A stretch of 64,000 nt of DNA from Deltaproteobacteria bacterium (GTDB taxonomy: Bacteria; Desulfobacterota; Syntrophobacteria; BM002). Below the pieces are notes generated by a model. That model was given only the letters and a program-made list of their open reading frames with translations. It did no database searches and was not told where the DNA came from. The stretch is from assembly GCA_022340905.1 (NCBI GenBank), contig JAJDNB010000095.1:10967-74966 (forward strand), given 5' to 3'. Of this stretch, positions 2,467-63,653 are shown in pieces; the first letter of the stretch is position 1, and each line of letters begins with the position of its first letter. The translations under genes were made by a program, and so were the position numbers.

Positions 2467-3858
2467 TCACTCCAACGTAAAAGTTTCTTGGAATTTGGGG
2501 ATGACCACATCCCATCCCAACCTTGTGTTGATTTTTTCTGCCAGTGATGATGAAGCATCGGGTTCACCGTGAACAATAAAGGTCTTTTGGGGAGGACGGT
2601 TGAAACCCATTAACCAAGCCAATATTTCGTTGTAATCTGCGTGGGCTGAGAAGCCGGATATGTTTTCAACCCGTGCCTTGATAGGAACATCTTCCCCGTG
2701 GATTTTCACCCTTGGGTTTCCGTCCAAGATTTTCCTCCCCCTCGTCCCTTCAGCCTGGTGTCCAATGAACAAAATGGTGTCTTTCCTAGAAGGGAGTCGA
2801 TGCCTCAAGTGATGCAAGATACGACCACCGGTGGCCATACCACTGGCGGAAATAATAATGGCATTTCTCTTTATCTCATTGAGCGCTTTGGATTCGTCTC
2901 GATGTCGACAAAACTTTAGCTGTTGCGGTTTTAGGATGGAGGTTCCCCGAATTTCCAAGACCTTCGCTACCAGACCATAACATCCTTTATTGTTTTCAAA
3001 GACAGCTGTTGTGTCGATTGCCATAGGTGAGTCCACGTACACCGGCAAAGAGGGAATCTCCTTGTCCTCCTCTAGCTCTCTTAGAGAGTAGAGCAGCTCC
3101 TGCGTCCGACCCACGGCAAAAGAAGGAATTACTAGCACTCCACCCCTGTCTACGCTGGCATTGATTACGGCTGCGAGATCCTTCTCTGGTGTTTCGTTTT
3201 GGTGCAGCCTGTTGCCGTAGGTTGATTCCAGGATAAGATAGTCGACCTCGAAGGGCTGGACAGGATCGCGAAGGATTGGTCTCGCTGGCCTACCCAGATC
3301 ACCGCTAAAGACGATCCTGCTTGCCCTCCCCTCTTTCATTAATTTGACGTCAACGAAGGAAGAGCCAAGTATGTGTCCTGCGTCCTTAAATTTTACCCGC
3401 AAGCTGTCAGTCAAAAATATGTCCTCACCGTAATGGTATGGCTCAAACTGTGATAGAGCGTTTTCTGCCTCCTCCACTGTATATAGCGGCAGGGCCGGTT
3501 TGTGTTTAGAGAATCCTCTTTTGTTGGCCCAAGTGGCGTCCTCTTCCTGAAGATGGCCTGAGTCGCGCAAAAGAATCTCACACAGGTTGTAGGTGGGGTG
3601 GGTACAATGGACCTTTCCCTTGAAACCCTGTTTACACAGCCGAGGCAGATAGCCAGAGTGATCAATATGAGCGTGGGTAAGAAAAACTCTGTCTAAATCA
3701 GTGGGAGCGATAGGAAAAGGTTCCCAGTTTCTCAACCTATTTTTCTTTAATCCTTGGAAAAGGCCACAATCTAACAGGAGACTGTTGCCGTCGATCTCTA
3801 GAAAAAAACGAGATCCTGTAACCGTACCCGTGGCACCTAAGAATGTTAGTTTTGTCAT
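2467..3858 (-). CDS. MBL-fold beta-CASP RNA-metabolising metallo-hydrolase (RNase J / CPSF-like)
   Basis: HAHIDHSGYLP metallo-beta-lactamase motif, beta-CASP and RMMBL-like C-terminus, length about 460 aa. Start chosen at MTKLTF (3858) because AGGA lies 9 nt upstream. The longer ORF start at 3891 has no RBS. Confidence 0.8.
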   Translation of the reverse strand: MTKLTFLGATGTVTGSRFFLEIDGNSLLLDCGLFQGLKKNRLRNWEPFPIAPTDLDRVFLTHAHIDHSGYLPRLCKQGFKGKVHCTHPTYNLCEILLRDSGHLQEEDATWANKRGFSKHKPALPLYTVEEAENALSQFEPYHYGEDIFLTDSLRVKFKDAGHILGSSFVDVKLMKEGRASRIVFSGDLGRPARPILRDPVQPFEVDYLILESTYGNRLHQNETPEKDLAAVINASVDRGGVLVIPSFAVGRTQELLYSLRELEEDKEIPSLPVYVDSPMAIDTTAVFENNKGCYGLVAKVLEIRGTSILKPQQLKFCRHRDESKALNEIKRNAIIISASGMATGGRILHHLRHRLPSRKDTILFIGHQAEGTRGRKILDGNPRVKIHGEDVPIKARVENISGFSAHADYNEILAWLMGFNRPPQKTFIVHGEPDASSSLAEKINTRLGWDVVIPKFQETFTLE

Positions 3859-3964
3859 CTTAGATCCTGCATTGAAGACACTAGACACCAAGTCTCGAGG
3901 TGTCAGGTGTCAGGGAGGAGAAACAGAAAAGCTGAAACCTGAACTCTGAAACCTTAGCTTATGT

Positions 3965-6728: not shown

Positions 6729-7148
6729 ATGGCAGATGAATTTGAAACTTATGGTGATCGACGCAAGGGCAAGGACAGAAGGGGCGACACTGATAGACGC
6801 TCTGGAAGGGATAGACGTAGTGGTGCTGAGAGAAGAAGTACCAGAGACAGACGGTCTGGCTGGGGAAAGGTGGACGAGGAGAGGTTGCAGGGTGCCCTGA
6901 CTGCGGCGGCCACGGTGGCACATCTGTTCAGCCAACCGTTGACAATAGTAATTGGGCACGTGGATCTACTGTTGTCCCGAGTGGAAGATCAAGCCGCCAG
7001 GAGAAAACTAGAAATAATCAAGGAACAATTGCAATCTTTGAGCATGACATTACAGGACTTGAGAAATCTTAGGCATTACAAGACAGTGGATTTGGATGGC
7101 CTTGTCCTGCTAGACATAGGACTACGAAAGGTTAAGAAGCTTGACTGA
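6729..7148 (+). CDS. HisKA (DHp) domain-only protein with N-terminal Arg-rich DRRSG repeats (Spo0B/ChpT-like phosphotransferase candidate)
   Basis: N-terminus DRRKGKDRRGDTDRRSGRDRRSGAERRSTRDRRSG, a degenerate 7-aa repeat. The core AHLFSQPLTIVIGHVDLL matches the HisKA H-box. No HATPase domain follows. Confidence 0.5.
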   Translation: MADEFETYGDRRKGKDRRGDTDRRSGRDRRSGAERRSTRDRRSGWGKVDEERLQGALTAAATVAHLFSQPLTIVIGHVDLLLSRVEDQAARRKLEIIKEQLQSLSMTLQDLRNLRHYKTVDLDGLVLLDIGLRKVKKLD

Positions 7149-11635: not shown

Positions 11636-13624
11636 CTAATCTACCTCACCGGCTTCAACATCCAGAGCCTGACGATCTGCCATATCCATGAGCACGCGCT
11701 CACGCTCACCAATAATACCCAGAGCCTCGCGTTTCTTGTCAATATGGTCGATCACCATGGCGGCCATCTCATAGGGATCGGTGGCAAAACCCCACTTGCC
11801 TAGACCCTGCTTCTCCAACCCGTCAAAGAGCAGCTTGTGAAACTTGGTCTCCGCTATGGTGGGGAAGGTAACGCCAAACACCGTATATATTCCAGAGGCC
11901 ACCACATACTGACCAATGGCTATAGCCTTCTCACTGTACCACTCAGGGGCAACTCCGGCCACCGGCAGATCTGCTATGGTCTCACCCAAACCACCAGTCT
12001 TCACCATCTCAGCACAGGCAACGAGGATCCGGCTGTTGTCCACACAGCTACCCAGTCCCAATACCGGGGGCATGCCTACGGTCTCACAGACCTCCTGCAA
12101 GCCATCACCTGCCAATACCGAGGCATCAGGCTTCATCAACCCGGCCTTGGCCAGAGCTATCTGGGAACAACCAGTCTGCACCACCAAAATGTCGTTTTTG
12201 ATCAGTTCTTTCACCAACTCAACATGCACATAGTCCTGACGCACCCTGGGATTGGTGCAGCCAACCACACCGGCAACTCCCCGAATACGACCATTGATGA
12301 TGTTGTCATTCAAGGGCACATACGATGCCCGGAAGGTACCACCAAGCATGTAGTTGATGTATTCGTGGCTGAAGCCGTGAATCCCCAAAGACTTATTCTG
12401 GGGAATCACTATCTTGGCCTTGCGATTCTTGAATCGCTTGATCGCCTCTTTCACCACCTTGTCCGTGCACTGCCTCGGTTTATGCTCCTCAAACTCAATG
12501 TGCTCCGCACCCTCCATCTTGGCTCGGGGATTGGTGGTGAAAAACTTGGTGCCATAACACTCAGCAAGAGGCGCCAGAGCAGGCATGATACACTGCACAT
12601 CCACTGCCATGGCATCCACTGCACCGGTGATCAAAACCGCCTCGGTGCTCATGAAATTACCCGCATGGGGTATCCCGTGACGACACAATACTTCGGCACC
12701 AGAGCAGCACATGCCCAAAATATTGATGCCTTCGGCTCCCGCTCCCTTAGCCTCTTCCAATAGCTTGGGATCATTTACCGAAGCAATCAAAGACTCAAAC
12801 AGGTTGGGCTCATGACCATTTACAATGATGTTCACCTGCTTCTCATCCAAATAACCCATGTCTACCCCAGCCAAAACCGGAGAGGGCGTGCCAAACAATA
12901 TGTCAGAGATCTCGGTGGCCACCATGGAACCACCCCAACCATCGGCAAGGGCTGTACGACTGCACTGCTTTACCATGTTCTCGTAGTCCTGATCCACTCC
13001 CATGTGGGTCCGGTGCATGATCTCCATGATCTCCCGCATGGCCCCACGGGGAACGATCCCCAGCTCGCGCCACTTGGCCAAGGTCTTGGGCGGTACCCGG
13101 CTGGCAAAGGGAATCTCACCCTCAACCTGAGTGTAGGTACGCTCCAATTCTTTGTAGAGATCCGTGGCTACCTCCTTGACCTCACGACCAGCTGTCTCGA
13201 TACCTAAACCTTCGGCTACATCGAAAAGCTTCTGCTCGTCTTTGATTTTGTAGTCCTTGATCTCACCATTTACCACGCCACGAAACACATCCAGCATGGT
13301 CATGCCGTGGTCCGTGTGGGCCGCAGTACCCGCTGCCACCATCCGGGCAAAGTTCCGCGAGGCGATGGTGTCGATGGTTGCCCCGCATATGCCCGTCTTC
13401 GCATAGGGATCCTTGGAGGACAGCCGGCAGGGACCCATGGAACAGTGCTTACAACAGGCAGAGTCAGCTCCTATGGGACAGGCCTTCATCTCCGCTGCCC
13501 GGTGAAAGGCGGTCTCTACCCCGTCTTCCGCTGCCTTGCGCAACATCTGCTGGGTGGATTTGCAGGTGGTTACCTGCATGATCGGTAGTTCTTTCTTTTT
13601 CTTCTCCTTTACCTCTTCTGCCAT
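11636..13624 (-). CDS. cooS: Anaerobic Ni-dependent carbon monoxide dehydrogenase catalytic subunit
   Basis: 662 aa. N-terminal cluster motif CPIGADSACCKHCSMGPCR with further Cys/His ligands. Homologous to the adjacent Hcp, as expected for the prismane/CODH family. Confidence 0.85.
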   Translation of the reverse strand: MAEEVKEKKKKELPIMQVTTCKSTQQMLRKAAEDGVETAFHRAAEMKACPIGADSACCKHCSMGPCRLSSKDPYAKTGICGATIDTIASRNFARMVAAGTAAHTDHGMTMLDVFRGVVNGEIKDYKIKDEQKLFDVAEGLGIETAGREVKEVATDLYKELERTYTQVEGEIPFASRVPPKTLAKWRELGIVPRGAMREIMEIMHRTHMGVDQDYENMVKQCSRTALADGWGGSMVATEISDILFGTPSPVLAGVDMGYLDEKQVNIIVNGHEPNLFESLIASVNDPKLLEEAKGAGAEGINILGMCCSGAEVLCRHGIPHAGNFMSTEAVLITGAVDAMAVDVQCIMPALAPLAECYGTKFFTTNPRAKMEGAEHIEFEEHKPRQCTDKVVKEAIKRFKNRKAKIVIPQNKSLGIHGFSHEYINYMLGGTFRASYVPLNDNIINGRIRGVAGVVGCTNPRVRQDYVHVELVKELIKNDILVVQTGCSQIALAKAGLMKPDASVLAGDGLQEVCETVGMPPVLGLGSCVDNSRILVACAEMVKTGGLGETIADLPVAGVAPEWYSEKAIAIGQYVVASGIYTVFGVTFPTIAETKFHKLLFDGLEKQGLGKWGFATDPYEMAAMVIDHIDKKREALGIIGERERVLMDMADRQALDVEAGEVD

Positions 13625-13938
13625 AGTTTTCTCCTTAAAAGATTCAGATAAATTTGCTCCCTGAATTTTGCTTGCTAGACCTTAAAGTCACTTGCTGTTT
13701 TGGAGACCTATAAAAAGGTGAGCAGTAATCGTGCCAGAAAGATGAATGCATAAAGTCATTTAATATTAACTAGTTACGATCAGGCAATAAACGAATCATT
13801 GTCCGGATTATGCCATAATGGAATAATGCCATTCCATTCTGGAGTTATCCTTGTAAAAGAGAATTCCCAGCGCTGTCGTCGCGGCAGCTTCTTACTAGAT
13901 AGGAAGATTTAAAATAATTTTTTCAGTTTTTTTCTTTC

Positions 13939-13952
13939 TTGACTTAAGTCAA
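13939..13952. promoter_or_regulatory. CRP/FNR-family (HcpR-type) binding palindrome TTGAC-TTAA-GTCAA about 95 bp upstream of hcp
   Basis: Perfect TTGACnnnnGTCAA inverted repeat. A TACAAT -10-like hexamer lies about 30 bp downstream (13981-13986). It sits in the 425-bp divergent cooS-hcp intergenic region. Confidence 0.5.
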
Positions 13953-14049
13953 TGCCGGTGACCATGCTATTTATTACAGTTACAATCAATTAATCTTCAA
14001 GAGCAAAAACAACAGTTAGTGTAAATAGATTCAGCTTTAGAAAAGGAGG

Positions 14050-15684
14050 ATGTACATGTTTTGTTATCAATGCGAGCAAACGGCAAAAGGTGAAGGGTGC
14101 ACCAAGATAGGGGTATGTGGCAAGGAACCCGAGGTTGCTGCCCTTCAAGATCTATTGACCTACGGACTTATCGGGCTTTCTCAATATGCTGTCGAGGGCC
14201 GTAAAGTTGGCGTTAGCGAGCGGGACGTCAATGTATTTACAGTCGAGGCTTCTTTTTCCACCTTGACTAATGTGGACTTCGATCCTGATCGCTTCGTGGG
14301 CTTGATCAATCAAGCGGTGGAAAAGCGAGAGGGACTGGCGGAGAAAGTCAAGGCTGCGGGCGGAAAAGTTGATTTCGCCGATGGGCCTGCCACCTTCAAA
14401 CCCGAGACCACCCTGGACGGCCTGATCCGGCAGGGAGAGGCAGTGGGCATTAAGTCCTATCCAGCAGACAATCCCGATATTCTTTCCCTGAAACACACGG
14501 TGCTCTTTGGTATCCGGGGAATATCCGCTTATGCAGACCATGCGCAGATTCTCGGACAAGAGGACGACACAGTCTATGGCTTCGTCCACGAGGCTCTTGC
14601 GGCACTGTGGAGAGAAGATCTCGGACTGGAAGATTGGGTTGGATTGGCCCTCAAGTGCGGTGAAATAAATCTCAGGACCATGGAACTTCTAGATGCTGGA
14701 AATACAGGAACCTACGGGCATCCTGTGCCAACAAAAGTTCCGTTGGGACATAAGAAAGGCAAGGCCATCCTGGTCTCGGGTCACGACCTGAAAGACATGG
14801 AAGAACTGCTCAAGCAGACACAAGGCAAGGGAATCCATATTTACACGCACGGCGAGATGCTACCTACCCACGGTTACCCGGAGCTAAAGAAATACGAGCA
14901 TTTTTACGGTCATTATGGCACAGCTTGGCAGAACCAGGGCAAAGAGTTCATGCAGTTCCCTGGTGCTATCTTGATGACCACAAACTGTATCCAGAGGCCC
15001 AAGGAGGAGTACAGGAATAACATCTTTACCTGCGGCCTGGTTGGCTGGCCCGGGATAGCCCACATCTCCGACCGCAACTTTCAGCCGGTCATCGATCGAG
15101 CTCTTGCCCTACCGGGATTCCAGGAGGATGAAAACGGCAAGGATGTAATGGTGGGATTCGGCAGGAATACCGTCTTGGGTGTTGCCGATAAGGTCATCGA
15201 GGCAGTAAAGGGCAAAGCCATCCGTCACTTCTTTGTAGTGGCAGGCTGCGATGGAGCCAAGCCCGGTCGGAATTACTACACCGAGTTCGTGGAAAAGGTT
15301 CCCGAAGATACCGTGGTTTTGACCTTTGCTTGCGGCAAGTTTCGATTCTTCGACAAGGACCTGGGAGACATCGGTGGTATTCCGAGGTTGCTGGACATTG
15401 GCCAGTGCAATGACGCCCATTCGGCAATCCAGATTGCCGTGGCCCTGGCTAACGCTTTTAATGTAGGAGTCAATGATTTGCCCCTGTCGATAATCTGCTC
15501 GTGGTATGAGCAAAAGGCAGTGGCGATCCTTTTGTCCTTGCTCCATCTGGGAATCAAGGACATTCGCCTTGGACCTTCTCTACCGGCCTTTGTTTCCCCC
15601 AACGTCCTCGATGTCTTGGTGAAGAACTTCGACATCAAACCCATTACCACGCCGGACCAGGATCTCAAGGCGATTTTGGGATAG
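14050..15684 (+). CDS. hcp: Hybrid-cluster protein (hydroxylamine reductase)
   Basis: N-terminus MFCYQCEQTAKGEGCTKIGVCGK, 544 aa. RBS AAAGGAGGA. Confidence 0.9.
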   Translation: MYMFCYQCEQTAKGEGCTKIGVCGKEPEVAALQDLLTYGLIGLSQYAVEGRKVGVSERDVNVFTVEASFSTLTNVDFDPDRFVGLINQAVEKREGLAEKVKAAGGKVDFADGPATFKPETTLDGLIRQGEAVGIKSYPADNPDILSLKHTVLFGIRGISAYADHAQILGQEDDTVYGFVHEALAALWREDLGLEDWVGLALKCGEINLRTMELLDAGNTGTYGHPVPTKVPLGHKKGKAILVSGHDLKDMEELLKQTQGKGIHIYTHGEMLPTHGYPELKKYEHFYGHYGTAWQNQGKEFMQFPGAILMTTNCIQRPKEEYRNNIFTCGLVGWPGIAHISDRNFQPVIDRALALPGFQEDENGKDVMVGFGRNTVLGVADKVIEAVKGKAIRHFFVVAGCDGAKPGRNYYTEFVEKVPEDTVVLTFACGKFRFFDKDLGDIGGIPRLLDIGQCNDAHSAIQIAVALANAFNVGVNDLPLSIICSWYEQKAVAILLSLLHLGIKDIRLGPSLPAFVSPNVLDVLVKNFDIKPITTPDQDLKAILG

Positions 15685-15782
15685 TTACCCTTGAATGGTT
15701 TAGCGGGAGGGGGTCAACCCCTCTCCCCTACACCCCCCTTTGGAAGGGGATATGAGATTGGAAATTTGGGGTTGCAGGCTTT

Positions 15783-15890
15783 AGGTTTCGGGCGTCAGGT
15801 GTCGGGTTTCGGGAAAAATAAAGTGAAACGCTAAAGGTGAATCCTGAATAGCTTATAGCTAAACACTGAAACCCGAACACTGAAACCTGA
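15783..15890. repeat. Copy of the GGTTTCGGG palindromic repeat between hcp and narG
   Basis: AGGTTTCGGGCGTCAGGTGTCGGGTTTCGGG ... CACTGAAACCCGAACACTGAAACCTGA. Confidence 0.7.
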
Positions 15891-16086
15891 TTCAAGAGGC
15901 AACAGATTCGTGTCCGGTGGAAGCTATCCATTGGGAAGAATAAGACATATCGAAAGACTGAGACAAACTTAGAGCAAAATAAATTCCGCTAATTTACTAG
16001 GATCCCAGGTTAGGCCGAAATAGTTGTCCGGTCAAAAATAAGGGCTGCACAATCGTTGCCCATACCATCAAAAATGGAGGGAAACT

Positions 16087-19000
16087 ATGGCAAAGAGAAG
16101 TCTTCTGTCCTCTCTTCGCTTTCTTAGACCTCGAACCACCTGCGTAAAGGAAGCCCTTGCTGGGGGCTGGGCTGAGGTCCGTTGCGGCGAGCGGGATTGG
16201 GAGGATTTCTATCGAAAAAGATGGCAGTATGACAAGAAGGTCCGTTCAACTCATGGGGTCAACTGCACAGGTTCCTGCTCATGGGATGTTTACGTCAAGG
16301 ACGGGATTATAGTATGGGAGACCCAGAGAGGCGACTATCCGAGTTGCGGACCCGATCTTCCCGACCACGAGCCTCGGGGCTGCCCCCGGGGAGCTACCTT
16401 CTCCTGGTACACCTATAGCCCGGTACGACTAAAATACCCCTACATTCGCTCGGTCTTGTTAGAAATGTGGCGAACTCAGATCGATTCCACGGACGATCCG
16501 GTGACCGCCTGGCAGACCATTGTGGAGGATGAAGAAAAGAGGAAAATCTACCAACAAGCTCGGGGAAGAGGTGGATTTGTTCGTGTTCCCTGGGAGGAAG
16601 CTGCCACTCTCATAGCAGCATCCTTAGTGTATACCATAAAGAAATATGGACCAGAGAGAATATTTGGCTTTACCCCCATCCCCGCCATGTCTATGGTTTG
16701 CTATGCTTCGGGCGCACGCTTTCTTTCTCTCATAGGCGGGTCCTTGATCAGCTTTTACGACTGGTACTGCGATCTGCCCCCTGCATCTCCCCAAATCTGG
16801 GGCGAACAAACAGATGTTCCGGAAAGCGCTGACTGGTATGAGTCGAGTTATATGATTGTCTGGGGGACTAACCTGCCTATGACCCGAACCCCTGACGCCC
16901 ACTTCTTCACCGAGGCACGCTACCGGGGGGCCAAGGTTGCAGCGGTAGCGCCAGACTACGCTGAATATGTGAAATTTGCCGACACCTGGCTACCGGCCAA
17001 GGCTGGTACTGACACCGCCCTGGCCATGGCTATGACCTTTGTTATTTTCAAGGAATTCTACCTAGAGCGACCCTCCGAGTACTTCACATCCTATGCGAAA
17101 GCCTATACGGATCTTCCCTTCGCCGTGGTTTTAAAATCAAAAGATGAACTGTACGTGTCGGAGAGGTTTTTAAGAGCCTCAGACCTAGGTTTCGACCAGG
17201 AAAACGGAGAATGGAAAACACTCTATTACGACCTGAACAGCAAGACTTTTGTAGTGCCCAACGGCAGCATAGGTTTCCGTTGGAACGAGGAAGGACGGTG
17301 GAATCTTCACCAGCTTGATTCAGTGAGTGGGGAAGCGGTGGATCCGCTCCTGAGCTTTGCCGGGGAAAATGATGGGTGGGTGTCCGTCGGCTTTCCCTTG
17401 TTTGATTTCCAAGGTGCAAAGGTAAGAATTGGTAAAGTTCCGGTGAAAAGAATAGTGGGGGACGGTGAGGGAATTACGGTCGCGACGGTCTTTGATCTCA
17501 TGGCAGCCAACCTTGGGATGGACAGGGGACAAGGAGGAGAGGTTGCCAAGGACTATGATGAGGCGAAAGCTTACACGCCCGGTTGGCAGGAGGCTATAAC
17601 CGGCGTTTCCAAAGCTGATGTGATCAGAGTAGCTCGGGAATTCGCCGAGAATGCGGACAAGACTAAGGGAAAGTCCATGATTTTTCTGGGGGCAGGCACC
17701 AACCACTGGTACCACAACGATATGACCTACCGGGCCATCCTGAACCTCACCACCCTCTGCGGCTGCCAGGGGGTAAACGGTGGTGGCTGGGCCCACTATG
17801 TTGGTCAAGAGAAGATTCGCCCCCAGGCTTCCTGGTCTGCAATTGCATTCGGCCTGGATTGGCGCCGGCCGCCGAGACAGCAGAATGGCACTTCCTTTTA
17901 CTATTTTGCCACTGATCAGTACCGCTACGAGACCTTTGACGCCAGTCACCTACGTTCCCCCTTGGCCGAGAAGTGGGTGGATAAACACTTGGCTGATTAT
18001 AACGTGATTGCCGCGAGGCTCGGCTGGCTGCCCTCCTATCCTCAGTTCAACCGGAACCCTTTGCAGCTGTGCAAAGAGGCGGTAGAAAATGGAGCTACCT
18101 CCGATGAAGAAATCATCTCTTACGTGGTGGAGAGGCTGAAGAAAGGAGAAATAAAGTTTGCCCTGGAAGACCCGGACAGTCCGGAAAATTGGCCTCGCCT
18201 ACTTTTTCTGTGGCGAGCAAATCTGCTGGGTGCCAGCGGCAAGGGGCATGAGTACTTTCTCAAACATCTTCTGGGAACAGAGCATTCGGTGTTAAATCGT
18301 GAAAGTGAGAAAAAGACAGAGGAGGTTCTGTGGAGGGATCCTGCCCCCGAAGGCAAGCTGGATCTCTTGGTCACCTCAGAGCTCCGAATGTCTACCAGTG
18401 CTCTTTACGCTGACGTGGCCTTACCCGCGGCATCTTGGTACGAGATGCATGATCTCAGCACCACGGATCTGCACTCTTTTATCCACCCTTTTAACCCCGC
18501 AATTGATCCTCCCTGGGAGAGCAGGACAAATTGGGATCAGTTCAAAACCATTGCCGAGAAATTTTCTGAACTGGCGGTTGGTCATCTCGGTGAAGAAAAG
18601 GATTTAGTTGCCACTCCCTTGCTCCACGATTCTCCTGGAGAGATCGCCCAACCTAAGGTGAAAGACTGGAAAAGGGGTGAGGTGGAGCCTGTACCCGGAA
18701 AAACCATGTCGAACCTCACCGTGGTGACTCGGGACTACCCGAATACTTACAAGATGATGACCTCATTGGGGCCACTGGTGGCTAGTGTGGGGATCGGTTC
18801 CAAGGGGGTGACCTGGAAGGCGGATCAAGAATACGAGGACCTGAAGGCAAAATTGGGAACGGTCTCAACTGGCGGAGTAACTGAGGGGATGCCTCAGTTG
18901 CAGACAGGTAAGCAAGTGGCGGAAGCGATCCTGGCTCTGGCCCCGGAGACCAATGGAAACACAGCGGTAAAGGCGTGGCAGACCCTAGAGAAAAAGACAG

Positions 19001-19770
19001 GACTCAATCTGGCCCATTTGAGTGTTGAGAGAAAAGGGGAAAAGATGAGTTTTGCAGATCTTGATGGACAACCGCGCAAGATCATCACCAGCCCCATCTG
19101 GAGTGGCATAGAGTCCGAAGACCGTTTTTATTCGCCCTTTGTGATTAACATAGAGGAAAAAGTTCCCTTTCGCACCCTCACTGGTCGGGCCCAGTTCTAC
19201 CAGGATCACGAGTGGATGTTGGCCTTTGGTGAGGGGTTGCCGGTTTTCCGGCCACCTTTGGACATGCAGGCCCTGGGCTCCACCGAGATTGGTCGCAGTG
19301 ATAGCAAAGAAATTATCTTAAACTATCTCACCCCCCATTCCAAATGGTCCATTCATAGCACCTATTCCGATACTCTGATCATGTTAACTCTCTTCCGGGG
19401 AGGAGAGGCTATCTGGATCAATGACGAGGATGCGTCCTCCATTGGCGTCGAAGACAATGATTGGCTCGAGTGCTTCAATGTCAATGGAGTGGTGATGGCA
19501 AAGGCTGTTGTAAGTCACCGAATCCCCAGAGGGAAAGCTTTCATGTATCACGCTCAAGAGAGAATGATCAACACTCCCGGGTCGCAGCTGTCAGGTAAAC
19601 GAGGGGGAACCCACAACAGCGTTACTCGTATCCTGGTGAAGCCAACCCAAATGATTGGCGGATATGCTCAACTGAGTTACGGCTTCAACTATTATGGCCC
19701 CACAGGTGCCCAAAGGGATGAAGTTATTGTGGTCCGGAAGGCAGGAAAGGTTGATTGGTATGAAGATTAA
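16087..19770 (+). CDS. narG: Respiratory nitrate reductase alpha subunit
   Basis: 1227 aa. N-terminal FS0 region HGVNCTGSCSWDVYVKDG. Mo-bisMGD domain architecture. Confidence 0.95.
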   Translation: MAKRSLLSSLRFLRPRTTCVKEALAGGWAEVRCGERDWEDFYRKRWQYDKKVRSTHGVNCTGSCSWDVYVKDGIIVWETQRGDYPSCGPDLPDHEPRGCPRGATFSWYTYSPVRLKYPYIRSVLLEMWRTQIDSTDDPVTAWQTIVEDEEKRKIYQQARGRGGFVRVPWEEAATLIAASLVYTIKKYGPERIFGFTPIPAMSMVCYASGARFLSLIGGSLISFYDWYCDLPPASPQIWGEQTDVPESADWYESSYMIVWGTNLPMTRTPDAHFFTEARYRGAKVAAVAPDYAEYVKFADTWLPAKAGTDTALAMAMTFVIFKEFYLERPSEYFTSYAKAYTDLPFAVVLKSKDELYVSERFLRASDLGFDQENGEWKTLYYDLNSKTFVVPNGSIGFRWNEEGRWNLHQLDSVSGEAVDPLLSFAGENDGWVSVGFPLFDFQGAKVRIGKVPVKRIVGDGEGITVATVFDLMAANLGMDRGQGGEVAKDYDEAKAYTPGWQEAITGVSKADVIRVAREFAENADKTKGKSMIFLGAGTNHWYHNDMTYRAILNLTTLCGCQGVNGGGWAHYVGQEKIRPQASWSAIAFGLDWRRPPRQQNGTSFYYFATDQYRYETFDASHLRSPLAEKWVDKHLADYNVIAARLGWLPSYPQFNRNPLQLCKEAVENGATSDEEIISYVVERLKKGEIKFALEDPDSPENWPRLLFLWRANLLGASGKGHEYFLKHLLGTEHSVLNRESEKKTEEVLWRDPAPEGKLDLLVTSELRMSTSALYADVALPAASWYEMHDLSTTDLHSFIHPFNPAIDPPWESRTNWDQFKTIAEKFSELAVGHLGEEKDLVATPLLHDSPGEIAQPKVKDWKRGEVEPVPGKTMSNLTVVTRDYPNTYKMMTSLGPLVASVGIGSKGVTWKADQEYEDLKAKLGTVSTGGVTEGMPQLQTGKQVAEAILALAPETNGNTAVKAWQTLEKKTGLNLAHLSVERKGEKMSFADLDGQPRKIITSPIWSGIESEDRFYSPFVINIEEKVPFRTLTGRAQFYQDHEWMLAFGEGLPVFRPPLDMQALGSTEIGRSDSKEIILNYLTPHSKWSIHSTYSDTLIMLTLFRGGEAIWINDEDASSIGVEDNDWLECFNVNGVVMAKAVVSHRIPRGKAFMYHAQERMINTPGSQLSGKRGGTHNSVTRILVKPTQMIGGYAQLSYGFNYYGPTGAQRDEVIVVRKAGKVDWYED

Positions 19771-21181
19771 AGCGCAGATTGGGATGGTTCTAAATTTGGA
19801 CAAGTGTATCGGTTGCCATACCTGCAGCATTCCCTGCAAGAATGTCTGGACCAATAGGACTGGAGCCGAATACATCTGGTTCAACAACGTGGAGACCAAG
19901 CCGGGGATCGGCTACCCTAAGAAATGGGAGAATCAGACGATCCACAAGGGTGGCTGGAAGATGGATGCAAAACTTCGCCTTCGTGCTGGCGGTCAACCGA
20001 GCAAGCTGTTGAAGATCTTTCACAACCCTGATTTACCAGCCATTGATGAATATTACGAGCCTTGGACCTACAACTATGACAAGTTGATTTCCACTGCCCA
20101 GAAAAAACATCAGCCTTCAACCAGGCCCCAATCCCTGATCACTGGCAAGCCCATACGGCTCAGATGGGGCCCAAACTGGGAGGACGATCTAGCCGGGGTC
20201 AGTGAAACGGGCACGGGAGATGTTAATTTCAACAACCTGGACTACCAGGTTTACCTGCAGTTCAAAAAAGTGTTTATGTTTTACCTCCCCCGCCTTTGTG
20301 AACACTGCCTTAATCCAGCCTGCGTGGCCTCTTGTCCCTCAGGTGCTCTCTACAAGCGGGAGGAGGATGGAATCGTCTTGGTGGATCAGGAGAGATGCCG
20401 TGGGTGGCGATATTGTGTTTCAGGTTGTCCATACAAAAAGGTCTATTTCAACTGGGAGACCGGTAGATCCGAAAAATGTATTTTCTGTTATCCCAGAATT
20501 GAAGCAGGAATGACCAGTCTCTGCGCTGAGACCTGTGTTGGCAAGATACGCTATGTGGGTGTCATTCTCTACGATGCAGATAAAATTGCCATGACAGCCT
20601 CCACTGAGAAAGAGCAAGAACTGTATCCCGCCCAAGCCAGGATGTTCCTGGATCCCACGGACCCGGCAGTTGTTGCCGAAGCTATTTCTCAAGGAATACC
20701 GCAGAGCTATATCGAAGCAGCCCAACAGTCTCCGGTCTATAAGTTGGCGGTAGACTGGCAATTGGCCTTCCCACTCCATCCTGAATTCAGAACCCTGCCC
20801 ATGGTCTGGTACATTCCGCCACTGAGCCCTCTGGTGCAGTTTTTCGACGAATCTGTTGCTGATGTCCACGATCCTGAGGTGATGAGAATTCCATTGACCT
20901 ATCTTGCCAATCTTCTCACTGCCGGCGATAGGGAACCGGTCCGGATGGCATTGCGTCGACTCATGGCCCTGAGAAGCTACATGCGTTCCAGGCGGCTGGA
21001 AGGTAAAGCAGATGCTCATGTTCTTGAAAAAGTGGGAATGACCGAGGAGATGGCACAGGGGATTTACCGATTGCTTGCCATCGCCAAATACAAAGATCGT
21101 TTCGTCATTCCTACCACAAAGAAAGAAACGGAGGTCGATCTCTATCGCGGCCAAGGGGCCGCGGGGTTTGATTCGCATTGA
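19760..21181 (+). CDS. narH: Respiratory nitrate reductase beta subunit (4 Fe-S clusters)
   Basis: MKIKAQIGMVLNLDKCIGCHTCSIPCKNVW canonical NarH N-terminus. Start 19760 overlaps the narG stop by 11 nt. The ORF-track start at 19694 is an upstream extension. Confidence 0.95.
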   Translation: MKIKAQIGMVLNLDKCIGCHTCSIPCKNVWTNRTGAEYIWFNNVETKPGIGYPKKWENQTIHKGGWKMDAKLRLRAGGQPSKLLKIFHNPDLPAIDEYYEPWTYNYDKLISTAQKKHQPSTRPQSLITGKPIRLRWGPNWEDDLAGVSETGTGDVNFNNLDYQVYLQFKKVFMFYLPRLCEHCLNPACVASCPSGALYKREEDGIVLVDQERCRGWRYCVSGCPYKKVYFNWETGRSEKCIFCYPRIEAGMTSLCAETCVGKIRYVGVILYDADKIAMTASTEKEQELYPAQARMFLDPTDPAVVAEAISQGIPQSYIEAAQQSPVYKLAVDWQLAFPLHPEFRTLPMVWYIPPLSPLVQFFDESVADVHDPEVMRIPLTYLANLLTAGDREPVRMALRRLMALRSYMRSRRLEGKADAHVLEKVGMTEEMAQGIYRLLAIAKYKDRFVIPTTKKETEVDLYRGQGAAGFDSH

Positions 21182-21327
21182 GCATAGCGCAATGTCCAGC
21201 AGGCAGCGGGCAGATTGCAGCAGGCAGCCAGAGAGTAAGAGGTCGGAAATCAGAGAGTAGAGAGTACAAGAGAGCTGGCTACTGAGAAAGAAGCGGGGAC
21301 ATGGGTTTGGTTGTATAGGAGAAGGAG

Positions 21328-21870
21328 TTGGTGGTGGTTATAAACGAGGAAAATCGACATCTGTTAAAGGTGCTATCGGCTCTGCTTCAGTATCCCGACG
21401 AGGAACTTGTTCTTTTGCTCGATGAGTTGAAGGAAGCGGTTGGAGAAATTCCCCAAGAGGAGCACCGAGAAAAGTGCGTGAATTGCTTAGACTATCTGGA
21501 GAATAATTCGTTGATCCACTTACAGGAGGAGTACACAGCGACCTTTGACTTAAACCCCGCAACCAGCCTTAATCTTACTTACCACAAGTGGGGAGATGCC
21601 CGGGAAAGGGGAAGTGCTCTCTCCGATTTAAATTACCTTTATCACACAGCCGGCTACGATAGCTCCGATGACGACCTGCCTGATTATCTCCCGTTAATAT
21701 TGGAGTTTCTCTCCATAACTACATTAGCAGACAGTTTTTTGTTTCTTGGACAGTACTGTGACCAGGTGGAAGCTGTGGGTTCGCGCCTCAGAGAGAAAGG
21801 CAGTCCATATGCCGGTCTTTTTGAGATTGTCCTGGATATTTTTAGAGATTTACGAGGTAACGGAGACTGA
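21328..21870 (+). CDS. narJ: Nitrate reductase molybdenum cofactor assembly chaperone (TorD family)
   Basis: 180 aa, lying between narH and narI. LLQYPDEEL N-terminal pattern. Confidence 0.75.
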   Translation: MVVVINEENRHLLKVLSALLQYPDEELVLLLDELKEAVGEIPQEEHREKCVNCLDYLENNSLIHLQEEYTATFDLNPATSLNLTYHKWGDARERGSALSDLNYLYHTAGYDSSDDDLPDYLPLILEFLSITTLADSFLFLGQYCDQVEAVGSRLREKGSPYAGLFEIVLDIFRDLRGNGD

Positions 21871-21874
21871 GGAA

Positions 21875-22558
21875 ATGAACACGTTAAACACGCTCGCATT
21901 TTTAGTTTTCCCATACTTGGCGATCACTACCTGTGTAGTCGGTCATCTATACCGTTACCTTAGCGATCCCTACGGCTGGAATACGAGGTCGAGCGAACTT
22001 CTCGAAAAGAAGGGGTTAAAGTTTGCGGCCACGATTTTCCACTGGGGAATTATTTTTACCCTACTGGGACACGGAGCTGGATTGCTGGTCCCCCAAAAGT
22101 TTTGGGATGCGATGGGCATGGACAGCCAGACTCACACGGTGTTTGCCACCTATAGCGGTCTCGTTGTTGGGTCTGCGGCTCTATTGGGCCTTACCCTGTT
22201 ACTTTTTCGCCGACTCACCAAGGATCGAATACTGGCCACCACAACGCTGAACGATTTTGTCACCATAGGACTGCTGTTTTTTGTTGTCGCCACAGGGACT
22301 GCCAATGTTGTCATTAGTCTGTACGAACACTTTGACATTCTTACCACTGTTGCCCCATGGCTTCGCGGAATCGTCACCTTCACTCCAGATCCGACTCTCA
22401 TGCTCAGGGTGCCCCTGAGATTCAAGCTTCACATTCTCGGAGTGTTGACCCTAACAGGATTTTGGCCTTTTAGTCGCTTAGTGCATGTGTGGAGCATACC
22501 ACTCACTTATATTTTCCGCAGATGGATCATATTTAGAAAGAGAGAGGCTGTTTTATAA
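21875..22558 (+). CDS. narI: Respiratory nitrate reductase gamma subunit (dihaem cytochrome b)
   Basis: 227 aa from MNTLNTLAFLVFPYLAITTCVVGH (start 5 nt after the narJ stop). Five TM helices with conserved His. The ORF-track start at 21746 is an extension overlapping narJ. Confidence 0.85.
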   Translation: MNTLNTLAFLVFPYLAITTCVVGHLYRYLSDPYGWNTRSSELLEKKGLKFAATIFHWGIIFTLLGHGAGLLVPQKFWDAMGMDSQTHTVFATYSGLVVGSAALLGLTLLLFRRLTKDRILATTTLNDFVTIGLLFFVVATGTANVVISLYEHFDILTTVAPWLRGIVTFTPDPTLMLRVPLRFKLHILGVLTLTGFWPFSRLVHVWSIPLTYIFRRWIIFRKREAVL

Positions 22559-22661
22559 GGCAGGGTTTAGAGATCAAAGGTTTCAGGTGTCAGGTTTCGG
22601 GTGTCAGGATGACAAACAAAGGCTGAAACCTGTAACCTTATCGGGAAGGAGGTGAAGCTCC

Positions 22662-23966
22662 ATGAATGAAGAAGCCGTGTGTTACGCCCAATCCAGTCGA
22701 GGTGCTGCCCTGACTTGGACTACCTTGGCATTTTTTGCTGGCTTTGCGGGGGTTTCTGCTTTCGGTCCAATCGTTCCCAAGCTTAAAGAGTCTATGGCCT
22801 TGGATCCCTTCTTCATGGGTTTGTTGGCGGCCTGCCCTGCCCTCACCGGCTCCTTGCTGCGGATTCCTTTTGGAGCTATGGTTGACCGTATGGGTGGCAA
22901 AAAGCCCATTATGATCCTTTTAGTGCTCGCAGTTGCAGGCATCGGTTGCATAACCCTGATGTTCGGCCTCTTCAGACCCCCTCAGCCGGTTCATTATCCA
23001 GTGTTCCTCTTGTCCGGAATTCTCTGCGGTTGTGGTATTGCGGTGTTCTCCGTTGGGATTCCTACTGTTTCTTATTGGTATCCTCAGAAGAGACAGGGAA
23101 CCGCGCTCGCTATTTATGCGGGTCTGGGAAACATGGCGCCTGGAATGTTCGCCGTGATCCTCCCTTATCTGGTTGTATCTCTTGGGCTACCAATTTCTTA
23201 TGTGCTGTGGCTGGCCATGCTTGTCATTCTCCTTGGAGTATTCTGGTTTTTTATGCACGATGCCCCCTATTTTCAATATAGACAGATGGGCATAGAAATC
23301 GACAAAGACGCCCTGCTTATTGCCTGTGGTGAGGAACTATTCCCCTCAGGAGCCGCTTTCGAGTCGGTCAAGAAAGCGGGGTCCGACTGGCGAACGTGGA
23401 TATTGACCGCCTTTTACTTTGTCTCTTTTGGTGGTTTTATTGCTCTTACTGTCTGGTTTCCAACCTATTGGACCGAACACTTCGGCACAAGCCTGGTGGT
23501 GGCTGGTTCACTTACTGCTTTGTACTCACTTGCCACTTCCTTGCTCAGAGTTTTCGGCGGACTCACTTCGGATCGAATTGGTGGCGAAAAGACGGTGTTT
23601 ATTTCTTTTGTGATCGTCACAGTAGGTGCTTTTCTTCTTATCATCGCTTCAGAGTCTATGGGGCTTGCTGTAGCCGGCGAGGTGTTTCTTGCTCTGGGAA
23701 TGGGATTCGCCAATGCTGCTGTGTTCAAGCTGGTACCCAAATACACGCCGGAGACGGTTGGCGGGTCCGCAGGGATTGTGGGAGGCTTGGGAGCCTTTGG
23801 AGGTTTTGTCATACCGCCTGTGATGGGTCTTTTCGTCAAGGTGTCTGGTAGTGACGGATATTCTCTTGGATTTACGGTCTTTTTGGCACTCTCCCTGGTA
23901 TCTCTGGGTCTCTTTGCCATTCTAAACCATTATGCTTCCGGACATGAGGCGACGGCCACGACGTAA
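22662..23966 (+). CDS. narK: MFS nitrate/nitrite transporter (NarK family)
   Basis: 12-TM MFS protein with the G-x-x-x-D-R-x-G-x-R-type motif (GAMVDRMGGKKP), directly downstream of narGHJI. RBS GGAAGGAGGTG. Confidence 0.75.
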   Translation: MNEEAVCYAQSSRGAALTWTTLAFFAGFAGVSAFGPIVPKLKESMALDPFFMGLLAACPALTGSLLRIPFGAMVDRMGGKKPIMILLVLAVAGIGCITLMFGLFRPPQPVHYPVFLLSGILCGCGIAVFSVGIPTVSYWYPQKRQGTALAIYAGLGNMAPGMFAVILPYLVVSLGLPISYVLWLAMLVILLGVFWFFMHDAPYFQYRQMGIEIDKDALLIACGEELFPSGAAFESVKKAGSDWRTWILTAFYFVSFGGFIALTVWFPTYWTEHFGTSLVVAGSLTALYSLATSLLRVFGGLTSDRIGGEKTVFISFVIVTVGAFLLIIASESMGLAVAGEVFLALGMGFANAAVFKLVPKYTPETVGGSAGIVGGLGAFGGFVIPPVMGLFVKVSGSDGYSLGFTVFLALSLVSLGLFAILNHYASGHEATATT

Positions 23967-61663: not shown

Positions 61664-61882
61664 TTAGATCAGACTTCGAAGGACCGGTTTAATTCTTCTG
61701 ACATCATTTGGCAGTAAGCCTTTGGGTACGTAAAAATTCCCAAGAGATTGCGAGAATTGGTAACGGGCACAAGCCGAATAATCTCCGTGACAATATTTTT
61801 GCAGCAGCTCAAATGCTTGAGATTGTGGATCTATTGTATTCTTATAAAACCAACAATCTCCGTATATTTCACAGCGAGACAT
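61664..61882 (-). CDS. Small Cys-rich hypothetical protein
   Basis: MSRCEIYGDCWFYK ... YCHGDYSACARY, four Cys in a C-x5-C / C-x6-C arrangement. RBS GAGGTGA. Confidence 0.4.
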   Translation of the reverse strand: MSRCEIYGDCWFYKNTIDPQSQAFELLQKYCHGDYSACARYQFSQSLGNFYVPKGLLPNDVRRIKPVLRSLI

Positions 61883-61991
61883 TTTTATCACCTCAATTCA
61901 AGGCTGTCCCTGACCTCAAAATTTCCCAGCTGGAAGCGCGTACATACTCACGCTTTCCTAGTGGTGCCGGCTGATTTTTCTCACTAGACAA

Positions 61992-62140: not shown

Positions 62141-62869
62141 CTAGTCGGGGGTGCTGAGTCTTCTGAGTGCTTTTTTCAATGCGGCGATGTGGACGTCACC
62201 AGCGAAATGAACTGGGCTCTTTCCGTGGATGGGATCCCAACCAGAAGGATCTGCTGAGCAGAAGAACTGGGTTTCAAGTCCAATGCGGAATATGGCATCC
62301 TCGACTGGTAAACCCTCTACCCGTTTAGCTGCATCCCACGTTGCTCCACAAGGGGCACCTCGGATCACCTCGACGCTGGTCACCTTCTCCTCCGCGGTTT
62401 CTACTTCAAACTCTGGAGAACCGAATAATTCCCCGTATTGACCCAGGCCGACCTGCCTGGAAAGACCGCATCAAGTTGGGGGGACAAAAATCCTCTGGCC
62501 TTTCACTTTTTTGCCCGAGGCAACTACTGGGATTTTACTCCTGGCGCAGGCAGCGGCGAGATCGTGCGAGAGGTCAGGATGTTTCAAAAAGTCCAAAACC
62601 AGGTCTGCCTGAATATCTTCGGGTAAATACTCCGAAGTATTATCGAGGATCGGAGGCAAGGGCTCGTCGATAGATATTGTCTCAATGATAAAAAAATCCT
62701 TTCCGTATTTTTTTATGCCCCGTATTTTCTTTTCACCGCTGCCATTCTGTTGAAATACCAAGATTCTTTGAGGGTTAGCAGATTTTAGTGTTTCGCCTTC
62801 CCCGGGAATGAAGCAACCTTTGCACTTCTCTGTGATCACTGATAGCGACCTTTCAGCCAGCGGTGTCAT
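62141..62869 (-). CDS. Cys-rich selenoprotein candidate of about 242 aa, with an in-frame UGA at 62471-62473 joining two ORF-track ORFs
   Basis: ORFs 62471-62869 and 62141-62383 are in the same frame, separated only by TGA. Read-through gives ...RIFVPPT-U-CGLSRQVGLGQYGELFGSPEFEVETAEEKVTSVEV... The hairpin CCAGGC-AGGUCG-GCCUGG starts 14 nt after the UGA and contains CAGGUCGGC. N-terminal CKGC, later APCG and FFCSADP. Start overlaps the upstream PilZ gene stop (ATGA). Confidence 0.65.
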
Positions 62870-63204
62870 TTAAAATCGGTATCATTTAGGAGTCGGGAAA
62901 CAGCATCCGATATAAACTGGCGATCCTCGTCAGACATCTCAACGAAACGGACTCCCATCCCGAGAGCCAAAACCTTACCTGCCCATATCACCTCCGCTGT
63001 GATCTTTAAAACGGCCGATTCGGGAGGTCTAATGGTCAAAGAGACTCGCTCTCCTGGTTCCGGTGTCTCATCGCAGTGGATATAGGCACCGCCAATCCCG
63101 AGATTTCTCAGCTTGGCTTCAATTATACCCCCCGCGCTTTCGATGGTAACAGGCCATCTGATCTCTGCTCTTGGGTAAGTACGCCTGTCTTCAACGGGAA
63201 TCAT
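62866..63204 (-). CDS. PilZ-domain protein
   Basis: RRTYPRAEIRWPV ... NLGIGGAYIH PilZ motifs. Translationally coupled to the selenoprotein gene. Confidence 0.7.
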   Translation of the reverse strand: MIPVEDRRTYPRAEIRWPVTIESAGGIIEAKLRNLGIGGAYIHCDETPEPGERVSLTIRPPESAVLKITAEVIWAGKVLALGMGVRFVEMSDEDRQFISDAVSRLLNDTDFK

Positions 63205-63494
63205 CTACTCACCCCCTAGATCTCGAAAGTGTTTCTCTTGCAAGTCTAGAGTAGCACCATCTAATACCTGTCGTATTTCCCCTTTATTGTTCCTATACCT
63301 TGTACAACAACTGGAAAAATCAAACAACACCTTTATGAAATCAGAGAAAACCTGATCCCTTCATCAGGTTAAGGTTACATAGCTTTGCCACTAAAGATTA
63401 CGAGCGGTTTTGGAGTAGTGAGGTCCTGGAGTATGGGCATGCCGTCGCATGAGGAAAAGATCACTGAACCCAGGTATGGTGTGGCTACCTCGGC

Positions 63495-63575
63495 TTCTTT
63501 TTATATAAAAAAAGGCCCCTTAGCAATTTAGATAGTATAAGAGCTTGGTGCTTAGGGGCCACTTCCAGTGGAGGG
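63495..63575 (-). terminator. Rho-independent terminator after the MoaD/ThiS-like gene
   Basis: On the minus strand: GGCCCCTAAGCA-(loop)-TGCTAAGGGGCC followed by TTTTTTTATAT. Confidence 0.45.
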
Positions 63576-63653
63576 GATCACCCTCCTTAATTGGACTGAG
63601 ATATCTACATCACAGCTTCGCCCAATGTCAAGAGAAAAGTAGAGGATGAAAGC

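Follow-up and report, generated by a model that had tools for sequence, protein, structure and literature searches.

A DUF166-family selenoprotein gene, dfsP, with a probable selenocysteine UGA and a predicted SECIS hairpin downstream of a PilZ gene in a deltaproteobacterial contig

An in-frame UGA in a DUF166 gene

In the window (the whole 64-kb stretch of DNA that was analysed) the UGA codon at 62473-62471 on the minus strand is very probably decoded as selenocysteine; the gene, dfsP, belongs to the known DUF166/COG1810 selenoprotein family and carries a bacterial SECIS downstream of the codon. The dfsP coding sequence (62141-62869, minus strand) comprises 242 codons from ATG 62869, or 232 if translation starts at GTG 62839, and this TGA is the single in-frame stop between the ATG (62869-62867) and the terminal TAG (62143-62141). 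Read through, the frame gives a product of 242 aa in which the stop stands in the context FVPPT-U-CGLSRQVGLGQYGE, with a Cys (CGLSRQ) directly after the Sec; the assignment of U133, followed by the invariant Cys134, is based on the homologue column and on the codons found at the corresponding genome loci. The protein also contains the motifs CKGC (aa 16-19), APCG (C174) and FFCSADP (C204).

An earlier note on this DNA had proposed that two adjacent ORFs form one UGA-read-through gene, of a family that it could not assign. The family can now be named as DfsP/DUF166/COG1810. The Cys-substituted protein matches Pfam DUF166 (PF02593) with 154 bits (cutoff 24.4, E = 5.9e-45) in one stretch, aa 37-236 against profile positions 1-220 of 221, which spans the TGA. 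The NCBIfam model NF041372, "DUF166 family (seleno)protein DfsP", scores 340.8 bits against a curated equivalog cutoff of 200 and aligns over its full length (aa 34-236 to model positions 1-203 of 203). The NCBI pipeline PGAP names proteins by these models and should call the window protein DfsP. "Conserved protein COG1810" was listed among the new selenoproteins of the Olavius algarvensis delta-symbionts, with a predicted SECIS (Zhang & Gladyshev 2007, NAR 35:4952, PMC1976440), and DUF166/NF041372 appears among the prokaryotic selenoprotein families in two reviews (PMC9312934, PMC13188914). The window gene is thus an ordinary member of a curated, published family of sulfate-reducer-like bacteria whose Sec codon and SECIS have been in the literature since 2007. 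It shares with that family the full-length equivalog match, the PPT-[U/C]-CGL site, a SECIS directly downstream and a deltaproteobacterial or Desulfobacterota host range, and departs from it in nothing essential: it has a lineage-specific CKGC N-terminal extension, common only to two related loci (L001 and L002), and a PilZ gene lies immediately upstream.

The codon itself is conserved between species. Eighty dfsP loci were fetched from genomes that each represent a species; almost all bear the label of a delta-proteobacterial or Desulfobacterota MAG or isolate, and in the 75 where the motif could be located the Sec position is TGA in 61 and TGT/TGC in 14. Together with the DUF166 match across the TGA, and with the use of TGA as an ordinary stop elsewhere in the window, this places the single-gene reading beyond chance. 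A protein database search found 1070 homologues, and in the best 120 of these the same column holds Cys in 112 and 'W' in the remaining 8; homologues are single uninterrupted ORFs with Cys at the Sec position rather than separate small proteins that end there.

If the TGA were instead a true stop or a nonsense mutation, the locus would consist of two small genes or a pseudogene and only the 132-aa N-terminal fragment would be made. Public metagenome gene calls at the identical locus do give a 132-aa DUF166 product, and among the cluster representatives there are many fragments whose end or start coincides with the Sec column, but callers that halt at UGA account for such fragments. The TGA stands at the same codon in 61 species with the downstream frames intact and C174 and C204 invariant, full-length homologues carry Cys at the position, and the RNA hairpin described below shows compensatory changes. 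We consider termination at this codon extremely improbable.

A further alternative is that the UGA is decoded, but not as Sec, through a reassigned code (Trp or Gly) or by leaky near-cognate read-through. In its favour are the eight database homologues with 'W' at the position, which include the two closest of the best 120 (70-71% identity), and the lack of Sec machinery in the 64-kb window, where a tRNA scan found no tRNA gene, and hence no tRNA-Sec, and where selA, selB and selD were absent among the 20 large ORFs scanned (these encode CooS, Hcp, NarGH, NarK, HgcA, a CopA-type ATPase and methylmalonyl-CoA enzymes, among others). The 'W' is most simply a TGA translated under an alternative code by the gene caller, most likely one that had switched to translation table 4 or 25. 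Against a reassigned code, TGA is the stop of 11 of the 22 confident window genes and is internal in none besides dfsP. Moreover, non-TGA homologues of the subfamily always have Cys at the position, never Trp or Gly, and the SECIS-type hairpin is a feature of the TGA forms only. Decoding as another amino acid is accordingly very unlikely, and we retain selenocysteine.

Since the window holds no Sec machinery, we infer that this genome is competent for Sec from its relatives, in which the UGA and the SECIS are conserved. Related genomes do use Sec, as in the FdhA of one Desulfobulbales-type locus (L055) with HCARY-UGA-HSAT. At that locus (2692-3774 and the following codons), and in 21 other loci of the same type, the ORF of a NuoG-like/molybdopterin formate dehydrogenase near dfsP stops at HCARY-TGA-HSATVAGL, the classical FdhA selenocysteine site; these loci therefore hold two selenoprotein (or Sec/Cys) genes within ~3 kb. 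Within the window no convincing second selenoprotein gene was found: the 18 other frames joined across a TGA amount to antisense or overlap noise, and the best candidate, TGA 7146-7148, proved to separate two ordinary adjacent genes.

The handling of this codon in public annotation is uneven. In a JGI contig with an identical PilZ gene (L081, 980-1378) dfsP is cut at the UGA to give a 132-aa product; some gene calls break dfsP into N- and C-terminal fragments, seen among the cluster representatives; and across the database proteins P0001, P0002, P0010, P0032, P0080, P0084, P0091 and P0095 the UGA is treated inconsistently, including as Trp. Naming the gene dfsP restores a full-length selenoprotein that ordinary callers split or mistranslate with Trp at the UGA.

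The hairpin downstream of the UGA

The candidate SECIS hairpin lies at 62442-62461 on the minus strand. Its 7-bp stem pairs U/CCAGGC (62461-62455) with GCCUGG/G (62448-62442) and closes on the apical loop AGGUCG (62454-62449). The earlier note had placed a hairpin 14 nt after the UGA; it folds as described there, but the spacing has to be corrected, the hairpin starting 10-11 nt after the A of the UGA. Its folding energy in the single sequence is unexceptional (z = -0.17 and -0.93), and the case for it rests consequently on comparative data.

For this comparison 60 nt around the codon were aligned without gaps for 58 distinct TGA-type sequences. Over the 7-bp helix 95.1% of cells show pairing, with 22 double-change cells; none of 500 shuffles attains this value and slid controls reach 21-63%. 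The pair between alignment columns 21 and 36, both third codon positions, is C-G in 37 sequences and A-U in 18, while pair 24-33 alternates between G-C and G-U, and the two loop guanines (G27, G28) are invariant in the Sec forms. In the Cys-type genes (n=14) the same columns are 59.2% paired and carry no covariation signal. The peptide encoded by the loop, R-Q-V, behaves in the same manner, being fixed in the Sec forms and variable in the Cys forms (RQD, RLA, RHK, PNP), and selection therefore acts on the RNA. The hairpin is thus present in the orthologous loci, conserved with compensatory changes in the TGA forms only. It had no match in Rfam, which gave no relevant family either in the whole window (gathering thresholds) or at the locus (E <= 10).

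On these alignments the element is predicted to be a classical bacterial SECIS. In the fdhF-type SECIS of E. coli, recoding by SelB involves a stem-loop within the coding sequence, ~11 nt after the UGA, with a GGU apical loop ~20 nt from the UGA and a constrained peptide. The dfsP hairpin is similar in its start distance, its GGU apical loop and its peptide constraint, but its helix is shorter and simpler: it has 7 bp, the loop is 6 nt long and a bulged U is not obvious; those dfsP relatives with an extra A-U pair have a 4-nt loop. By the established bacterial mechanism, the hairpin, with its GGU-containing apical loop ~17-22 nt from the UGA, would recruit SelB and Sec-tRNA(Sec) to the ribosome.

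Protein anatomy and possible role

The translated product would comprise ~232-242 aa, with a Rossmann-like N-terminal half and with C134, C174 and C204 in the C-terminal half, U133 immediately preceding C134. Structure prediction used a natural Cys homologue, P0004, 66% identical, in place of the window protein, and the AlphaFold model of P0004 has a pLDDT of 92.9 and a pTM of 0.88. The N-terminal half is Rossmann-like, and Pfam gives weak NAD_binding_7 and ThiF hints. No solved structure matches DfsP by sequence, a Foldseek search with the P0004 model returned nothing below E = 0.018, and the Cys-rich C-terminal half has no PDB counterpart.

The cysteines define the conserved core. Among the window protein and its best 120 homologues C108, C134, C174 and C204 are kept in 120-121 of 121 sequences. 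When 1.84 billion cluster representatives were searched with a profile, 359 relatives came up, and in an alignment of 36 diverse full-length DUF166 members C134, C174 and C204 (window numbering) are invariant in 36/36; the Sec column has Cys in 20 of them and F, L, T or G in the others, and C108 is specific to the DfsP subfamily. The position of Sec beside an invariant Cys triad suggests either a vicinal redox pair of selenol and thiol or a metal or Fe-S site whose fourth ligand varies, and it probably marks the active site. A Cys-rich selenoprotein with a U-C dyad, as had been proposed, is supported by the Cys column of the homologues, by the TGA in the orthologues and by the hairpin specific to the TGA forms. 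The N-terminal CKGC had been counted as part of the same redox or metal centre; this does not hold, as the motif is found only in the window and two close relatives and lies outside the conserved centre.

A vicinal Cys-Sec redox centre is found in mammalian thioredoxin reductase, at the C-terminal GCUG. By general analogy the Sec and Cys of DfsP are likewise adjacent, and a selenenylsulfide or the chelation of a soft metal would be possible. The order in DfsP is reversed (U-C), however, and the site is internal, in a protein of unrelated fold in which a flavin domain was not detected.

From these features we infer, as the most likely role for DfsP, an accessory oxidoreductase whose centre would be of the selenol/thiol redox kind or would contain a metal (possibly Fe-S or Ni), and with modest confidence we hypothesize that the protein assists anaerobic metabolism through selenol/thiol-based redox chemistry or the handling of metals. 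Functional data were found only for an archaeal member, the Methanococcus maripaludis DUF166 gene (MMP_RS05055): its deletion leads to the loss of autotrophic CO2 fixation, and it shows cofitness with CODH-ACS and CooC2 (bioRxiv 10.1101/2024.03.05.583561). The archaeal protein belongs to the same Pfam family, and the C134, C174 and C204 core is ascribed to it from the family-wide invariance; it is, however, a distant member whose gene adjoins cooC2 and CODH-ACS, and not a DfsP equivalog. A CODH gene occurs near dfsP in 1/80 bacterial loci, and the cooS gene of the window is ~49 kb off. No universal neighbour of dfsP exists across the 80 loci. Loci of the Desulfobulbales type have rubrerythrin, a Sec-type FdhA/NuoF-like formate dehydrogenase and DUF3786 with an FeS protein, and an ABC-F ATPase is also among the neighbours in more distant loci. 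Because the neighbours vary between lineages and the CODH linkage is 1/80, local context lends the biochemical role no support. Sec at the variable fourth position might give rise to a metal or Fe-S centre with Se as a ligand, or to a redox dyad of Sec and Cys, that serves anaerobic metalloenzymes such as CODH/ACS as an accessory factor, in line with the methanogen deletion, and whose activity or expression in this lineage is tied to c-di-GMP through the co-transcribed PilZ protein, a composite reading that we hold to be unlikely.

The start codon, the PilZ gene and the neighbourhood

Translation in the window may start at either of two codons. The ATG at 62869 overlaps the TGA stop of the upstream PilZ gene as ATGA. 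The alternative GTG (62837-62839, minus strand) is preceded by GAAAGG at 62854-62849, and in L001 and L002 an ATG preceded by a Shine-Dalgarno sequence (GAAAGG or GGGAGG) stands exactly at the position of GTG 62839; L002 has no usable start upstream of this ATG. In L003, on the other hand, the ATGA overlap is the sole start. L001 and L002 favour the downstream position, and the true dfsP start may therefore be GTG 62839 rather than ATG 62869. The N-terminal extension is otherwise unconserved, and its CKGC (or CTGC) is restricted to the window, L001 and L002.

The PilZ gene (62866-63204, minus strand) encodes a single-domain protein of 112 aa (Pfam PilZ, 59.9 bits against a cutoff of 22.5). Its sequence contains the RxxxR motif (RRTYPR, R8-R12), while the second motif, NLGIGG, has G at the S/A position of the expected (D/N)x(S/A)xxG. 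Upstream of dfsP, a PilZ orthologue on the same strand is found in 11-12 related loci only, of the 80 (L001-L012), and in none of the other ~65 loci is PilZ next to dfsP. In the window and L001-L003 the two genes are separated by -4 to 26 nt (the ATGA overlap in the window and L003, a 26-nt gap with its own Shine-Dalgarno sequence and ATG in L001 and L002), and by 208-726 nt in the remaining eight loci (within L004-L012). The loci L001-L012 have the whole neighbourhood in common, namely a MoaD/ThiS-like gene, PilZ, DfsP, a 75-aa Cys-rich ORF, an OmpA-like gene and a cytidylate-kinase-like gene on the opposite strand; in L003 an AOR-like gene lies upstream of the MoaD/ThiS-like gene.

In this lineage dfsP thus lies directly downstream of a small PilZ gene with which it is probably co-transcribed; co-transcription within this subclade is likely, and the pairing is lineage-specific. 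The earlier note put forward translational coupling of the two genes on the strength of the ATGA overlap. The overlap is present, but an overlap or tight gap is confined to the window and three relatives, and the overlap may not mark the real start. As an addition to the selenoprotein reading, PilZ and DfsP could constitute a functional module in which a c-di-GMP-bound PilZ protein controls or partners the selenoprotein, with the two genes coupled via the ATGA. The close spacing in the window and L001-L003 and the same-strand arrangement in 11 related loci are consistent with such a module. However, these loci share their entire neighbourhood, and the adjacency is explained by common descent; the gap is wide in 8/11 loci, the other ~65 loci have no adjoining PilZ gene, the start that is conserved is probably the downstream one (GTG/ATG), which has a Shine-Dalgarno sequence of its own, and the second c-di-GMP motif is degenerate. 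We regard the module as rather doubtful. The adjacency is new, but limited to one clade, and shared ancestry accounts for it.

Between the MoaD/ThiS-like gene and PilZ lies a 445-nt non-coding gap (63205-63653, minus strand). Within it an imperfect inverted repeat, GGCCCCTAAG...CTAAGGGGCC, is followed by a T-run (~63556-63500). The arrangement looks like a terminator by its sequence, although a consensus terminator scan made no call there; if it is one, PilZ-dfsP would have its own promoter. On the other side, ~250 nt downstream of dfsP, is the small Cys-rich ORF of 75 aa (61664-61891, minus strand; MSRCEIYGDCWFYKN...CHGDYSACARYQF...), which is syntenic in the same clade. It gave no Pfam or NCBIfam match. 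In the 11 syntenic loci it occupies the same relative position and is 78-97% identical, more conserved there than DfsP itself.

Several further features of the window were observed. A region at 31690-33023 (plus strand) encodes the corrinoid protein of mercury methylation, hgcA (452 bits, cutoff 275). A 95-aa ferredoxin with two [4Fe-4S] sites comes next, from 32736; it is similar to hgcB and appears to be without a C-terminal Cys pair. A CopZ-like 68-aa ORF then precedes a P-type ATPase of the CopA type, which has two HMA domains (region 33276-36041, plus strand). A beta-CASP/MBL nuclease is encoded at 2467-3891 (minus strand); its best NCBIfam match is type VII CRISPR Cas14, at 403 bits against a cutoff of 800, and it also resembles aCPSF1. 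Finally, in a genome that, judged from the nearest loci, looks to be of the Desulfobacterota/Syntrophobacteria type, a cluster at 11636-23966 contains cooS (anaerobic CO dehydrogenase), hcp (hybrid-cluster protein), narG/narH (respiratory nitrate reductase) and a gene for a NarK transporter.
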